Assembly (NCBI GenBank): GCA_045542775.1
Contig: JAZQLR010000023.1
Coordinates: 1 to 33,756 of the forward strand
Reading direction: 5' to 3'
Length of the DNA stretch: 33,756 bases
Source of the DNA: Clostridia bacterium
GTDB taxonomy: Bacteria; Bacillota; Clostridia; Monoglobales; Monoglobaceae
Shown: piece by piece, positions 1,434 to 31,306 of the stretch
Layout of the letters: every line of letters starts with the position of its first letter
Numbering within the stretch: the stretch's first letter is position 1
The notes under the pieces: generated by a model
The model's input: only the letters and a program-made list of their open reading frames with translations
Told to the model about the DNA's origin: nothing
Databases searched by the model: none
Translations under genes and position numbers: made by a program

Positions 1434-1440
1434 ACAAGAA

Positions 1441-1570
1441 TTTGATTAATTTGCTTTATGCTACGAACAAACTTCACCTCTCGGCGTATCAATGTACGCC
1501 TTCGGGTAACCCCTTTGGGTTCAGTTTGTCCGTTCTGCACTATTTTCTCTTCGCCCTATGCTGAACTGTT
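1441..1570 (+). repeat. Structured 3'-UTR element, family A (copy downstream of rpoD)
   Basis: Core cacctctcGGCGTAtcaatgTACGCCttcgggtaaCCCctttGGGttcag, flanked by the pairing arms gctacgaacaaac / gtttgtccgttctgc. It is the same family as 20293-20447, 23335-23476 and 29451-29552 when those are read on the minus strand. Confidence 0.7.
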
Positions 1571-1574
1571 ATAT

Positions 1575-1613
1575 AAACAGCCCATCGTACATTATGTACG
1601 ATGGGCTGTTTGT
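1575..1613. terminator. Bidirectional intrinsic terminator between rpoD and the convergent small ORF
   Basis: Perfect hairpin aaacagcccatcgtaca-tta-tgtacgatgggctgttt, with A/T runs on both sides. Confidence 0.8.
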
Positions 1614-1632
1614 TATTCTGAACGAAGTGAAT

Positions 1633-1782
1633 TTACTCTTCCTCCTCTTCACCTTCTTCCGAGGATTCATCACAAGTTTCTATGTATATATCCTCACATT
1701 CTACCTGCAATTCTTTTAACTCTTCAATCACATCAGTAACCTTGTTAAACATTTTTAAATACATCTTTTTGTAATCCGGCAT
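1633..1782 (-). CDS. Small acidic hypothetical protein (49 aa: MPDYKKMYLKMFNKVTDVIEELKELQVECEDIYIETCDESSEEGEEEEE)
   Basis: ATG at 1782 is preceded by ataGGAGGGcgaaat. The longer 82-aa track ORF would run into the upstream terminator/RNA. I recognise no family. Confidence 0.6.
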   Translation of the reverse strand: MPDYKKMYLKMFNKVTDVIEELKELQVECEDIYIETCDESSEEGEEEEE

Positions 1783-1802
1783 ATTTCGCCCTCCTATAAA
1801 AT

Positions 1803-1970
1803 AAAAAATGCGCCAACCGAAGCTGACGCACGAAAAACGCAGCTCCAAATTGTCGCCAAACAATATTCTAACATAAACCAATAAAGCGTATGCAAAAGAA
1901 CGGAGCCTGCGTTTTTACCTAAAAGATAAAACGCCACGCTTCATTGATTTTTTATTGAATATCATTTGGC
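1803..1970 (-). ncRNA. Candidate structured RNA, family B copy 3 (terminator-containing leader of the 49-aa acidic ORF)
   Basis: It starts about 7 nt after a consensus promoter. P1 is GCCAAAUGAUAUUC/GAAUAUUGUUUGGC and P2 is CAAUGAAGCGU/ACGCUUUAUUG. The long-range pairing is AAAAACGCAG/CUGCGUUUUU. It ends with a hairpin plus a U6 tract only ~20 nt before the ORF's ATG. Confidence 0.6.
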
Positions 1971-1976
1971 TCTATC

Positions 1977-2005
1977 ATTATATCACTATAATTTTAAAAT
2001 TGCAA
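1977..2005 (-). promoter_or_regulatory. Sigma-A type promoter of family B copy 3
   Basis: Minus strand reads TTGCAA - 17 nt - TATAAT. Confidence 0.65.
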
Positions 2006-9154: not shown

Positions 9155-10497
9155 TATCTGGGTGGGTTGTAGTTATTCATTCTCCGCTTCTTCCTCTTGC
9201 TCTTTTTAAGAGCACGTACAAAGCCAACTATTATCAGCGTTATAAACGCCAGTACAAGGCCGAGCACGGTGTATACCACAAACTTCACCACTCGGAAACT
9301 CCACAGCCATTCAAAAAATGTCATTACAAAGCCGAAGAAATGGCGTTTTACCTCCTGAGTAGAACACAGGTTCACGCTGCCGATTTCCTTGCCGTCATAG
9401 GTAAATTTAACCTTGCCTATTACCTGACCCGAGGTGATTGGTGCATAGACCTTTTCGGGGATTTCGGTAACAAACTCTATTTTCTCGCTGTCGCCGCCCT
9501 CAGGGAAAAGTGCCTCAAGGTTTTTTTCGGCGGAAAGCAGAATATGGTCTGTTCCGTCAGCCGCCTGCTTAACCTTTACCTCGCCGAATATATCATCGCG
9601 TTTAGCAAGGGTTTTAAGGCTGAACGCCGTTAAGCCGTACTGTAAAATCTCCTTGGACTCGTTGTGCGAAATGGCAATATCCTCGGCATTGAACACTACC
9701 GAAATTACCGATTTGCCCTTATCCTCGGCAGATGACACAAGGCAGTAGCCAGCCTCGGAGGTAGAACCGGTTTTGATGCCGGTTGCCTTGTCATAGAAGT
9801 AATACGGATAACGCATCAGGGATACAAGATTGTTTGTATTTATAAAATAACGCTGGTCGGACATATTTGTTGCCGGAAGGTAGATATGCGCGCATTCCAC
9901 AATCCCCGCAAATGTCGGGTTCTGCATCGCCACTCTCGCAAGCTTTGCCATATCCTTTGCCGTGGTGTGGTGGTCCTTGTGATGCAGACCGTGGGGATTC
10001 ATAAACGAGGTGTTTTCAAGACCCAATGCCTTTGCCTTTTCGTTCATACGCATAACAAATTCTTCGGCTGTTCCGCCAATGCCCTCGGCAATCACCATTG
10101 CCGCATCGTTGCCCGAAGCAATCAGAAGTCCCTGCAGAAGTCCCTCAAGAGTCATGCTCTCGCCGACCTTGAGCGCAATACTGCTGCCGTCTATATCAAG
10201 AGAATCATACGCCGCCTGACTGAGTGTCAATGGCTGGTCGAGGCTGATTTCACCGTTCTTCACCGCATCAAGTGCCACAAGTGCCGTCATCATCTTGGTG
10301 GTGCTGGCAGGGTACATTACCTTTTCCGAGTTCTTTTCAAACAGCACATTTCCGGTGTTTGCGTCTATAAGAATAACCGCCTCCGCCGTGGGACTTGGCT
10401 TAGGAGTCGCAAAAGCCGGAACTGTCGCACCCAGCATAATTATCGCCGCAAGACACAAAACCATTGCCATGCGAGTGTATGTAATCGCCTTTTTCAT
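9151..10497 (-). CDS. D-alanyl-D-alanine carboxypeptidase (class C low-MW PBP)
   Basis: Signal peptide MKKAITYTRMAMVLCLAAIIMLGATVPAFA. SxxK (STTK), SGN and KTG boxes are present, with a C-terminal TM anchor and basic tail. The ATG at 10497 has a GGAGG RBS; the longer track ORF would overlap tsaB. Confidence 0.9.
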   Translation of the reverse strand: MKKAITYTRMAMVLCLAAIIMLGATVPAFATPKPSPTAEAVILIDANTGNVLFEKNSEKVMYPASTTKMMTALVALDAVKNGEISLDQPLTLSQAAYDSLDIDGSSIALKVGESMTLEGLLQGLLIASGNDAAMVIAEGIGGTAEEFVMRMNEKAKALGLENTSFMNPHGLHHKDHHTTAKDMAKLARVAMQNPTFAGIVECAHIYLPATNMSDQRYFINTNNLVSLMRYPYYFYDKATGIKTGSTSEAGYCLVSSAEDKGKSVISVVFNAEDIAISHNESKEILQYGLTAFSLKTLAKRDDIFGEVKVKQAADGTDHILLSAEKNLEALFPEGGDSEKIEFVTEIPEKVYAPITSGQVIGKVKFTYDGKEIGSVNLCSTQEVKRHFFGFVMTFFEWLWSFRVVKFVVYTVLGLVLAFITLIIVGFVRALKKSKRKKRRMNNYNPPRY

Positions 10498-15680: not shown

Positions 15681-15709
15681 TTTACAAATTACGAAAAATA
15701 TGGTATTAT
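15681..15709 (+). promoter_or_regulatory. Sigma-A type promoter (extended -10) of family B copy 1
   Basis: TTTACA - 17 nt (ending TGg) - TATTAT. Confidence 0.6.
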
Positions 15710-15715
15710 ATTGGT

Positions 15716-15874
15716 TGCCAGATAATTTTTTAAAACGACTATACAAACATGCTTTCTTGCCTTTTGGCAAAAACGCACTGTTTTTTTACGCATGTTTGTA
15801 TGTTGTTAAAATCTTGTCTGGCGACTTGGAGCAGTGCGTTTTTCGGTGTACGGCTCTGCCGTGCACCTTTTTTA
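15716..15874 (+). ncRNA. Candidate structured RNA, family B copy 1 (stand-alone)
   Basis: P1 is GCCAGAUAA..UUUU/AAAA.UUGUCUGGC and P2 is UAUACAAACAUGC/GCAUGUUUGUAUG. There is an apical hairpin UUGCC-UUUU-GGCAA. The long-range pairing is AAAAACGCACUG/CAGUGCGUUUUU, and the terminator is GGUGUACGG-cucu-GCCGUGCACC plus U6. Confidence 0.6.
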
Positions 15875-16025: not shown

Positions 16026-16117
16026 GGAGAGGTGGTCGAGATGGTTTAAGGCGCAGCATTGGAAATGCTGTGTACGTTTATAGCGTACCGTGGGTTCGAA
16101 TCCCATCCTCTCCTCCA
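16026..16117 (+). tRNA. tRNA-Ser (anticodon GGA), class II with long variable arm, CCA encoded
   Basis: Acceptor ggagagg/cctctcc, anticodon stem-loop cagca-ttGGAaa-tgctg, variable arm tgtacgtttatagcgtaccg, T-arm gtgggTTCGAATcccat, and 3' tcca. Confidence 0.93.
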
Positions 16118-19853: not shown

Positions 19854-19931
19854 AAAGCTGTCCAAGATGCTCGACAAGCAAGACCCTTCGACAAGCTCAG
19901 GGTGACATCACGGGTGGCTTTGTATCCGGAA

Positions 19932-19960
19932 TTGTCATTCTGAACGCAGTGAAGAATCTT
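19932..19960 (+). repeat. Family D short repeat
   Basis: ttgtcattctgaacgcagtgaagaatctt. Confidence 0.8.
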
Positions 19961-19991
19961 TCTTGTCATCACGCAAAATATATAAAACACC

Positions 19992-20021
19992 TTGATTTTT
20001 TTATCAAACCTGTGGTATACT
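19992..20021 (+). promoter_or_regulatory. Sigma-A type promoter (extended -10) of family B copy 2
   Basis: TTGATT - 18 nt (ending TGg) - TATACT. Confidence 0.6.
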
Positions 20022-20027
20022 ATATTT

Positions 20028-20191
20028 GCCAAATCAAATTAATACTTGCTTTATGTGATCAGCTTTTTTGTCTTTCGGCAAAAATGTACTGCTTATTTAA
20101 GCTTGATTGTGTAAAGCATTAGGTTTAATTTGGTTTGGCGACTGAGGGCAGTACATTTTTCGGTGTACGGTTCTGCCGTACACCTTTTTTT
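20028..20191 (+). ncRNA. Candidate structured RNA, family B copy 2 (stand-alone)
   Basis: P1 is GCCAAAUCAAAUUAA/UUAAUUUGGUUUGGC (15 bp) and P2 is UUGCUUUAUGUGAUCAGCUU/AAGCUUGAUUGUGUAAAGCA. The long-range pairing is AAAAAUGUACUG/CAGUACAUUUUU. The terminator is GGUGUACGG-uucu-GCCGUACACC plus U7. Confidence 0.6.
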
Positions 20192-20230
20192 GTGCTTCTC
20201 TCGGAGGTTACCACACACTTGCATCCGGCA

Positions 20231-20266
20231 AAACACCCCGACCATATTGGTCGGGGTGTTTGCCTT
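20231..20266. terminator. Bidirectional hairpin terminator (end of the minus-strand peptidase operon)
   Basis: aaACACCCCGACCatatTGGTCGGGGTGTttgcc, with T-rich sequence on both strands. Confidence 0.7.
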
Positions 20267-20292
20267 TCAATTTTAAACAGCCACTTTCCCTA

Positions 20293-20447
20293 GGGGATAG
20301 GAAAAATAGGTTCAGAATGAATAAACTGAGCCAAAGCTATGCTTTGGGTTACCCGACGGCGTACTGTGGTGTACGCCGAGCGGCGAAGTTTATTTATAGC
20401 AAAAGGCACAGTTTGCCTTTTGCGCTCTGGACTATTTTAACATCCCC
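20293..20447 (-). repeat. Structured 3'-UTR element, family A (copy A1, overlaps the peptidase stop codon)
   Basis: On the plus strand: GGGGATAGGAAAAATAG...gagCCAAAGCtatGCTTTGGgttaCCCGAcGGCGTACtgtggtGTACGCCGAGCGGcgaag...CTATTTTAACATCCCC. It carries an extra internal hairpin aaaaggcacagtttgcctttt. Confidence 0.75.
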
Positions 20448-30735: not shown

Positions 30736-30811
30736 AGATTCTTCACTTCGTTCAGAATGACACTTCATTCTGATTCACTTATTGTCATTCTGAGGCATAG
30801 CCGAAGAATCT
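30736..30811. repeat. Inverted pair of family D repeats (potential long hairpin)
   Basis: agattcttcacttcgttcagaatgaca (30736-30762) is the reverse complement type of attgtcattctgaggcatagccgaagaatct (30781-30811). Confidence 0.75.
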
Positions 30812-30945: not shown

Positions 30946-30956
30946 TGCTTTTAAGT

Positions 30957-31306
30957 TATGCGGCAGACCTGTAAGCCGAGTTCTGTCTTTTAAGACGGTC
31001 ATCTATCTAAACCGCATATCACTATGCGGCTCAAGCCACCTTCTCGAAAGATGCCGGGCCAGCTTAGCCTTTCATTCAGGTGTTGCTCCGGATGGGGTTT
31101 ACAGCAAGGGTCAGTCGCCAGACCCCGAGTGAGCTCTTACCTCACTTTTCCACCCTTACCTGCAAAAAATACAGGCGGTATATTTCTGTTGCACTTTCCT
31201 TAAAGTTGCCTTCACAAGGTGTTACCTTGCACCCTGCCCTGTGGAGCTCGGACTTTCCTCACGCACAGGATTACTCCTTGTACCCGCGACCGTCCAGTCT
31301 GCCGAG
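30957..31306 (-). ncRNA. rnpB: RNase P RNA, bacterial type A
   Basis: Minus strand contains GAGGAAAGTCCGAGCTCCACAGGGCAG, AGTGCAACAGAAATATACCGCC, GGTAAGGGTGGAAAAGTGAGGTAAGAGCTCAC, GTAAACCCCATCCGGAGCAA and ACAGAACTCGGCTTACAGGTCTGCCG. P1 pairs CGGCAGAC.. at both ends. Boundaries are good to about 10 nt. Confidence 0.92.

Follow-up and report, generated by a model that had tools for sequence, protein, structure and literature searches.

In the pyr and trp-type attenuators of Bacillus subtilis, a chain of overlapping RNA helices ends in an intrinsic terminator that lies directly before the regulated open reading frame (ORF), and in leaders of the pyr/PyrR type termination is decided by an upstream element that sequesters the 5' strand of the antiterminator. 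Terminator riboswitches with pseudoknot aptamers also reside in 5' leaders, where the pairing of a loop with a 3' strand competes with an antiterminator, and riboswitches for second messengers are known to serve heterogeneous cargo rich in surface proteins. In the antisense attenuation of plasmid rep genes (pT181, pIP501 and pAMbeta1) a loop pairs with the nascent leader and induces its terminator, and in Listeria SreA/SreB and Enterococcus/Listeria EutX/Rli55 leaders that terminate prematurely yield stable small RNAs with a possible action in trans. Here, we describe a leader RNA, copy a, that is encoded on the minus strand of a 33,756-nucleotide (nt) stretch of DNA from a bacterium of the Monoglobaceae (contig JAZQLR010000023.1; the whole stretch is referred to as the window) and that precedes an ORF of 49 codons. 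Copy a belongs to a widespread family of leader RNAs of gut Clostridia (Monoglobaceae, Oscillospiraceae and relatives) that is absent from Rfam 15, and we present evidence that the leaders of this family probably gate the following gene by conditional intrinsic termination.

An earlier reading of this locus made from its letters only (the sequence-only reading) had listed it as the third copy of a repeated RNA, Family B, and had proposed a promoter, a structured RNA ending in a terminator, a Shine-Dalgarno (SD) sequence and an ORF that could be reached only by read-through. Every one of these elements was found on the minus strand at the place assigned to it (Table 1), and translation of the ORF, which is the inner portion of a mechanically called 82-amino-acid (aa) ORF with a TTG start, gives exactly the 49-aa peptide that had been quoted. 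In a promoter scan the promoter of copy a was TG-extended and scored a 10/12 match, and the first base of the long hairpin P1 lies 6 nt past the end of its -10 element. The RNA has a minimum free energy (MFE) of -60.7 kcal/mol (z = -5.9), which was equalled by none of 200 shuffled sequences. Since the ATG follows the U-run at a distance of only 20 nt, an independent promoter has no room, and the proposed need for read-through is further supported by the recurrence of the same order of RNA, terminator, SD and ORF in unrelated contexts across metagenome-assembled genomes (MAGs) of Clostridia.

The family was collected by scanning metagenome contigs with a DNA pattern taken from the RNA only, which made no demand for an ORF and asked for complementarity only at the level of purine/pyrimidine class, and which returned at least 120 stretches. 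A covariance model built from 15 seeds, comprising the terminator and a helix between the apical loop and the tail of the RNA (the loop-tail helix), gave 72 matches in the first 80 scanned loci and 35 in the remaining 40; at least 90 distinct members (alignment A7) were obtained, with E-values from 1e-5 to 1e-22. Both this collection and a scan of Rfam had been proposed in the sequence-only reading, and both bore fruit: the loop-tail helix covaries among 90 distinct members, and the RNA matches no Rfam 15 family at the gathering threshold, either in the window or at the loci of 16 other members; in the window, searches at E <=10 returned sub-threshold chance matches only. Topic and sequence-string searches of the literature found no description of the family and brought up only general catalogues of candidate structured RNAs; the family may be hidden in large collections of this type made from human microbiomes. 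A BLAST search of the leader against plasmids found no match, and one against phages found a single unverified faecal contig (L163, MT835503.1) that carries a true family member. At several loci members are clustered, either back-to-back and divergent (L128, 242-365 on the minus and 369-508 on the plus strand) or paired within one contig (L001, 5844-5979 and 7058-7189; L095, 9048-9179 and 12370-12502; L149, 1206-1334 and 4227-4366), and such clustering, whether in tandem, back-to-back or at distances of a few kb, suggests that a genome carries many copies.

Family members are about 165 nt long and promoter-proximal, and share a common layout. P1 begins near the predicted transcription start, carries an apical GG-Y-AAAAA-YRY plus 4-6 bases (X'+ext), and is closed by its 3' arm; a short linker (often GACA) leads to a tail that has UUUUU at its end and can pair with X'+ext, and a GC-rich terminator with U5-7 completes the RNA. 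The promoter motif TGnTAnnnT was present in the upstream search window of 54 of 86 members, ending a few nt before P1 in the examples listed. P1 comprises a median of 43 enclosing pairs (89 members), and RNAalifold recovered its basal 14 bp with compensatory changes at variable pairs; that the program recovered only these 14 bp, or only the loop-tail helix, is explained by the inability of MAFFT to align upper P1. The terminator helix is 98% paired in the 90-member alignment and its columns covary. Primary sequence is conserved in at least 80 of the 90 members only at the A5 and U5 tracts, at the GG (88/90 and 84/90 at its two positions; 1919-1918 in copy a, at the end of the P2 loop) and at nucleotides of the P1 base and GACA, and no conserved single-stranded stretch is obvious beyond the A5 loop.

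The sequence-only reading also proposed that, in this copy, an A-rich segment takes part in mutually exclusive pairings. AAAAACGC is indeed complementary to GCGTTTTA (1934-1927) upstream and to TGCGTTTTT (1841-1833) downstream, and the downstream pairing proved to be universal in the family and to covary; the upstream partner GCGUUUUA is right for copy a, but applies to only a subset of the family. In A7 the loop-tail helix, formed by the A5 loop and the U5 tail, is paired in 99.6% of cells, above all shuffle and slide controls, and shows exchanges of CG:44/UG:30/UA:15, GC:55/AU:29/GU:5 and CG:77/UG:9/UA:3. The median energy of a loop with its own tail is -18.1 kcal/mol, versus -14.2 kcal/mol with non-own tails (p = 6e-18), and the extension of the helix, which the search pattern left unconstrained, is likewise copy-specific (p = 2e-4). 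Within the window, X' reads CGC in copy b versus UGU in copy c, compensated in the tail by GCG versus ACA (two changes). The apical X1:X' hairpin, in turn, pairs in 63% of cells at fixed columns, and a small hairpin of another kind takes its place in other members; because this pairing is no better than in the controls, it is not claimed as a family feature.

The tail has a second partner that the sequence-only reading missed: the attenuator layout stood in so far as copy a is a terminator-containing leader, but the antiterminator, which the tail forms with the 5' half and loop of the terminator, was absent from it. Among 89 members, the helix of the tail with the terminator 5' half has a median energy of -11.9 kcal/mol versus -8.4 kcal/mol for shuffled tails, with z below zero in 79 (p = 4e-14), and own combinations are stronger than non-own ones (-12.6 versus -10.0 kcal/mol, p = 5e-15). 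This helix is thus copy-specific, and it is mutually exclusive with the terminator. For the nascent segment of copy a it amounts to -13.4 kcal/mol (z = -2.5). Furthermore, the antiterminator is the MFE structure of the 3' domain in 42 of 49 ORF-linked members versus 7 of 21 ORF-distant members (Fisher p = 3e-5), and the same division is seen in the window, where the 3' domain favors the antiterminator in copy a and the terminator in the ORF-less copies b and c. The statistics for the antiterminator and the loop-tail helix are energy and partner-swap tests, not tree-aware tests of covariation.

We favor the view that these leaders gate the following gene by conditional intrinsic termination, and a probable sequence of events for copy a can be outlined. 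Transcription would start a few bases ahead of the ~40-bp P1, and the tail and then the terminator would follow. Were the tail to pair with the 5' strand and loop of the terminator as an antiterminator, RNA polymerase would read into the SD and the 49-codon ORF; were the tail instead captured by the apical A5 segment of P1, which would serve as an anti-antiterminator, the terminator would form and a free RNA of ~168 nt would be released. In copy a the upstream GCGUUUUA hairpin could hold back the apical A5 segment, adding an extra layer. The sequences show the elements, their conservation, the complementarity specific to each copy and the close association with downstream ORFs; we infer that read-through is regulated and which way the switch runs, and consider a metabolite a less likely trigger than a protein, an RNA or a physical or kinetic cue. 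No motif of a known attenuation protein was seen by eye, and no leader peptide or aptamer-like core.

Several observations weigh against conditional termination. No effector is identifiable. With P1 fully formed, the reach ratio of the loop-tail pairing has a median of 0.4 (~0.8 in copy a by hand calculation), a rough estimate that uses predicted helices and a crude length model; the linkers that connect the helix with the two ends of P1, base and top, thus look too short, so that the loop-tail helix would need partial opening of P1 or would be intermolecular. The search pattern had fixed pyrimidine or purine classes beforehand at three of the loop-tail pairs, and the p-values overstate independence because the sequences are phylogenetically related. 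Finally, copies b and c keep perfect loop-tail complementarity over 15-16 bp with no ORF behind them, which indicates that the RNA has a function independent of a downstream gene.

Three other candidate features of the leader were considered and dropped: a U.A-U triplex of X1, X' and X2, since the polarity of the strands does not permit Hoogsteen pairing; a leader peptide, since the transcript starts at P1 and an SD is absent; and RAT, ANTAR, TRAP and PyrR sites, which were dismissed by eye without a motif scan, and for which Rfam gave no match.

The genes that follow the leaders bear both on conditional termination and on its alternatives. In the set of 71 members collected without regard to ORFs (the ORF-blind set), the U-run is followed by the start of a same-strand, SD-preceded ORF within 40 nt in 39 and within 100 nt in 49; among the 22 members that lack one within 100 nt, 17 have it at 100-250 nt and five have none within 250 nt. 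An association of homologues with downstream genes, on which the sequence-only reading had staked its layout, is therefore found within 100 nt for 49 of the 71 members and lacking at that distance for 22. Among all members, an SD-preceded ORF lies within 40 nt in 51 of 85, whereas the divergent side, used as a control, gave 4 of 74. The sequence-only reading had treated the leader as dedicated to the 49-aa ORF, and this part did not survive: the protein family of that ORF stands behind only one of the first 72 ORF-blind members. About 24 of 65 cargo genes encode lipoproteins, signal-peptide proteins or membrane proteins; others encode many small proteins, including helical ones, XRE regulators, a MazE/AbrB-type antitoxin and a BglII-family endonuclease, as well as an AMP-binding enzyme, a CpXC protein and Cys-rich peptides, and extracytoplasmic-function (ECF) sigma fusions lie 118-190 nt away from family members. 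With downstream genes this varied, the RNA cannot be regarded as a dedicated leader of the 49-aa protein. Cargo of the defence type may be frequent. The BglII-family endonuclease begins 22 nt past the U-run (L096), and on the faecal contig L163 the family member at 406-532 is followed by a methyltransferase-like ORF at 575-1723, with an NPPF motif read by eye, and by a second ORF at 1720-2829, in which DGQQR and HNH-like motifs were read by eye.

The breadth of this cargo argues against a pathway-specific metabolite riboswitch, which we consider unlikely, and for a generic leader module. A riboswitch in the wider sense, in which the apical region and the tail would form a pocket for a ligand such as a second messenger or an ion and so control the terminator, would account for the terminator-type expression platform, the long-range pseudoknot-like pairing and the invariant A5, U5 and GG, and its heterogeneous cargo rich in surface proteins would have precedent among the second-messenger riboswitches. 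However, the RNA is mostly a helix of free sequence with little conserved unpaired sequence, the apical hairpin is not family-wide, no Rfam aptamer matches, and a restriction enzyme, an antitoxin, XRE regulators and small-protein genes share no pathway; we regard a ligand pocket as improbable. The riboswitch-like character that the sequence-only reading had seen in the locus is accordingly unsupported, as only the A5/U5 tracts, the GG and the base of the helix are broadly conserved and no pathway unites the cargo.

The window itself contains exactly three copies by the covariance model (E ~1e-15 to 1e-20). P1 differs greatly in sequence among the three, and the pairing is kept. Copies b and c each possess their own TG-extended promoter and terminator, and fold with z of -8.4 and -8.7, respectively. 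No ORF follows copy b, which is succeeded by a second terminator and then by a tRNA gene; copy c lacks the family ORF and has a GGAGG remnant ~18 nt downstream. As two of the three window copies are without an ORF, the RNA can also form a transcription unit by itself. These observations raise the alternative that the element is primarily a free-standing small RNA gene, structural or trans-acting, with a constitutive terminator, and that the ORFs receive leaky read-through or merely landed nearby. In its favor, every window copy has a strong promoter and a canonical terminator of its own, 22 of the 71 ORF-blind members resemble copies b and c in having no SD-preceded ORF within 100 nt, and b and c retain P1, loop-tail complementarity and terminator under apparent purifying selection. 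This alternative does not readily explain why an SD lies within 40 nt of the U-run, commonly at 16-30 nt, in 39 of 71 members against 4 of 74 on the control side, nor why a copy-specific antiterminator is favored where an ORF follows; moreover, apart from the A5/U5 tracts the RNA shows no evident single-stranded seed that is conserved. On balance we judge it unlikely that the RNA is primarily a small RNA gene. Side by side with the family, tRNA genes occur ~90-250 nt from members at three loci (window 16026-16114 on the plus strand, L073 2221-2309 and L163 91-162), and the tRNA after copy b has a long variable arm.

A comparison of the window with a syntenic Monoglobaceae contig (L018, JBGVEN010000012.1; leader at ~9830-9980) showed that the leader differs from its surroundings in its degree of identity. 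Identity is 86% in the upstream gene, 89% in the intergenic spacer and 83% in the promoter region, falls to 43% in the P1 5' arm, 46% in the apical region, 58% in the P1 3' arm, 63% in the tail and 66% in the terminator with its U-run, and returns to 100% in the SD spacer and 92% in the ORF. The leader is thus 43-66% identical between flanks of 83-100%, the drop sets in at the transcription start and ends with the U-run, and the architecture is kept. From this alignment, the leader appears either to have been swapped for another family member or to have diverged far faster than its neutral flanks, and on either reading it behaves as a module.

Such divergence would be expected if the pairing between loop and tail were a fast-changing code that is private to each copy. 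In this alternative, an attenuator under product feedback, the apical loop of the accumulating terminated leader would pair in trans with nascent tails of its own locus or of loci with a compatible code, block the antiterminator and force termination, much as in countertranscript-driven attenuation but with a sense RNA as the regulator. As long as the 40-bp P1 is intact, a loop-tail helix within one molecule appears to be under steric strain, the pairing is copy-specific, the divergence from L018 is confined to the leader, and the ORF-less copies could be pure regulators: loop a pairs with tail b at -20.8 kcal/mol, as well as it does with its own tail. The argument is entirely inferential, however; partial opening of P1 with intramolecular pairing gives the same covariation, recombination among paralogues also accounts for the divergence of the leader, and the steric estimate is crude. 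We hold trans feedback of this type to be quite doubtful, and an extension of it, in which each locus would carry a private loop/tail code, trans feedback on the same locus or on loci sharing the code would set read-through, ORF-less copies would be dedicated regulators, and the code would diversify or be swapped as a module, so that the family would be a self-coded governor of the expression of accessory genes, is an equally speculative prospect, which would explain a leader more diverged than its neutral flanks by a diversifying or swapped code. An antisense promoter for the copy a leader was not found by the promoter scan within 1803-1972, and the plus-strand promoter-like sites at 1993/1994-2021 overlap the promoter of the RNA itself and are directed away from the leader.

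The modular behavior of the leader could also be that of a mobile or repeat-derived element, such as a miniature inverted-repeat transposable element (MITE) or a cassette boundary, whose hairpin acts as DNA and whose RNA features are incidental. Three copies within 34 kb, tandem or back-to-back copies at L001, L095, L128 and L149, tRNA genes adjoining at three loci, cargo of a mobile or defence flavor and the sharp boundaries of exchange are all compatible with this possibility. But the promoter and terminator are conserved and oriented with the hairpin, the tail pairings make sense only in RNA, the exchange boundaries are the transcription start and the U-run and not inverted-repeat termini, and neither a transposase nor a target duplication was seen, so that we think it very improbable that the family is a DNA element. 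Conditional termination remains our preferred reading of the leaders.

The 49-aa product has 12 close homologues, and a profile search reached 1,824 clusters at 50% identity. The 49-codon ORF is thus a real, conserved gene, and its product, to judge from these searches, belongs to a very large uncharacterised family of small proteins; no match to it was found in Pfam, NCBIfam, PHROG or the PDB. AlphaFold models the protein as a single long alpha-helix (residues 4-45, mean pLDDT, the predicted local distance difference test, of 86) with a disordered acidic tail. Homologues lie behind an RNA of this type, and their SD begins 16-36 nt past its U-run (68 nt in L021); the module of RNA and ORF is found after rpsF-ssb-rpsR (L001), before the rpsJ/S10 operon (L005), beside rpoD (L009, L010/L018 and L020) and in several other Clostridia MAGs, the closest relative being a Monoglobaceae MAG. 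In L001 a second RNA copy lies 1.2 kb downstream, ahead of a 65-aa paralogue, in tandem with the first. Some homologues have no leader: those of L011-L015 lie ~90-110 nt from a divergent gene for an XRE-type helix-turn-helix protein of 76-79 aa, and in L011 a promoter-like TTGACA-17-TAAAAT is readable. This placement of leader-less genes beside an XRE repressor gene suggests that the RNA substitutes for a regulator, and that the leader-less loci encode a pair of repressor and small protein, the latter perhaps an anti-repressor. The 49-aa homologues of L023, L036 and L042 are likewise without a leader.

Further variants of these loci were noted. At ~9900-9980 of L019 there is a deletion derivative of an L017-type leader, in which the P1 5' arm is fused to the U-rich tail and terminator; it lacks the apical loop and the 3' arm, retains the SD and small ORF, and amounts to a natural loop-less mutant. 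Five database proteins (P0012, P0029, P0034, P0038 and P0096) have N-terminal extensions like CAFFGAWLRLCAFF that, by eye, are apparent translations of a leader tail and terminator. Fused in frame to the small ORF, such N-termini point to mis-called starts and to the presence of the leader in more distant relatives. In an Oscillospiraceae MAG (ABMPRH_163_1; L025-L041) at least 10 diverged paralogue copies of the small ORF stand at contig ends, each preceded by a different GC-rich hairpin region that is not Family B, and the arrangement looks like an assembly-breaking repeat.

Upstream of the promoter of copy a, the TTTACAnnnnTTTTACAgaaaaCTATTGCAA block at 2014-2029, which comprises the TTTACA repeats, was also read in L005, L017, L018, L019, L020, L022, L024 and L027, and may serve as an UP element or as the site of a regulator acting at the level of transcription. 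The block, 5' of the -10 element, is kept among ORF-linked copies despite their differing RNA sequence; in its place, L016 (~75-110) and L031 have TGTCGAA motifs that resemble a Spo0A box. Elsewhere in the window, a second repeat (the "Family A" repeat), which has no Rfam match and may represent a structured RNA or the terminus of a small mobile element, occurs twice downstream of Family B copies, each time directly following a perfect hairpin. Short interspersed repeats of the GTCATTCTGAACGAAGTGAAGAATC type flank intergenic elements, and one also stands beside the leader promoter in L009/L020. The window also encodes an RNase P RNA of the ordinary bacterial class A (278 bits), which is unrelated to the leader family.

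Table 1. Positions of leader copies and other elements in the window.
Feature	Position	Strand	Details
Tandem TTTACA direct repeats	2029-2024, 2019-2014	-	immediately 5' of -35
Sigma-A-type promoter, copy a	1977-2005	-	TTGCAA 2005-2000, 17-nt spacer, TGaTATAAT with TATAAT 1982-1977
Structured leader RNA, copy a, ~168 nt	~1970-1803	-	long hairpin, tail, terminator
P1, long imperfect hairpin, ~35-40 bp	1855-1970	-	5' arm 1970-1937, 3' arm 1888-1855; from MFE folds
P2, apical hairpin inside P1	1909-1934	-	X1 GCGUUUUA 1934-1927 with X' AAAAACGC 1916-1909
X'+ext loop strand AAAAACGCAGGCUCC	1902-1916	-	complementary to tail; duplex -20.3 kcal/mol
Tail GGAGC-UGCGUUUUU (ext'+X2)	1833-1846	-	pivot segment
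Antiterminator (predicted)	1814-1852	-	CAAUU/GGAGCUGCGU 1852-1837 with GCG-U-CAGCUUC-GGUUG 1829-1814; in whole-RNA MFE
Intrinsic terminator GTGCGTCAGCTTCGGTTGGCGCAT	1831-1808	-	10-bp stem (5 G-C), UUCG loop; T6 1808-1803
SD GGAGGG	1789-1794	-	8-nt spacer (1802-1795) after U-run; 6 nt before ATG
49-aa ORF	1633-1782	-	ATG 1782-1780, stop at 1633
Copy b	15681-15873 (RNA ~15713-15873)	+	promoter 15681-15709, P1, AAAAACGCACUG loop, CAGUGCGUUUUU tail, terminator 15845-15867 + U6
Copy c	19992-20191 (RNA ~20027-20191)	+	promoter 19992-20021, P1, AAAAAUGUACUGC loop, GCAGUACAUUUUU tail, terminator 20162-20184 + U7
Second repeat, first copy	1440-1560	-	consensus TAGGG..AAAAATAgGTtCAGAAyGrAyAAACTGAaCC...GGGTTACCCGAmGGCGTAC..GTACGCCGAGmGGyGAAGTTT
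Second repeat, second copy	20290-20420	+	same consensus
Perfect hairpins before second repeat	1575-1611; 20229-20260		
GTCATTCTGAACGAAGTGAAGAATC-type repeats	1607-1632	-	
GTCATTCTGAACGAAGTGAAGAATC-type repeats	19929-19963	+	
GTCATTCTGAACGAAGTGAAGAATC-type repeats	30740-30810	+	
Class A RNase P RNA	30956-31305	-	

If conditional termination by these leaders is correct, a single portable module of promoter and leader would control many unrelated genes in gut Clostridia, among them genes for surface lipoproteins, small helical proteins and regulators as well as restriction and antitoxin genes. The module is abundant, with at least 120 metagenome stretches and three copies in 34 kb, and its architecture, in which a three-way competition for one short tail is added to a 40-bp hairpin, is a poor fit to the usual leaders that sense proteins or metabolites. 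The trigger, once identified, would expose a regulon-scale layer of control in organisms that are hard to study, and the copy-specific pairing code, together with divergence confined to the leader, raises the possibility of chromosomal feedback control between RNAs. For annotation, several "proteins" in the databases appear to be leader tails and terminators translated in fusion with a small ORF.

The systems described at the outset each share part of this architecture. Like the pyr/PyrR and trp-type attenuators, the family presents overlapping helices that end in an intrinsic terminator directly before an ORF, and the apical segment of P1 would sequester the 5' strand of the antiterminator; unlike in those attenuators, the partner that would act as the anti-antiterminator lies in the apex of a ~40-bp hairpin and not in an adjacent stem-loop, no PyrR, TRAP or T-box signature was seen, no Rfam match or leader peptide accompanies it, and the regulated genes are heterogeneous. 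With pseudoknotted terminator riboswitches the family has in common its 5'-leader position, a loop-to-3'-strand pairing set against an antiterminator and invariant A- and U-tracts, but its apical architecture is variable, no conserved core resembling a ligand pocket was seen, and its cargo lacks a common pathway. The antisense attenuators of pT181, pIP501 and pAMbeta1 resemble it in having specific, fast-evolving pairing codes; in the pT181 type, however, the loop is not carried on the same sense transcript as in the family, which has no evident antisense promoter and whose loci are chromosomal and numerous. The family lacks any homology found to SreA/SreB or EutX/Rli55, or a known target or sequestration partner, yet its ORF-less copies would fit a dual role of the kind that those released leaders may play. 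Copy a is probably an attenuator-type leader, and one of an unusual kind, in which a 40-bp hairpin and a three-way competition for the tail are joined with heterogeneous cargo, ORF-less copies and modular exchange.

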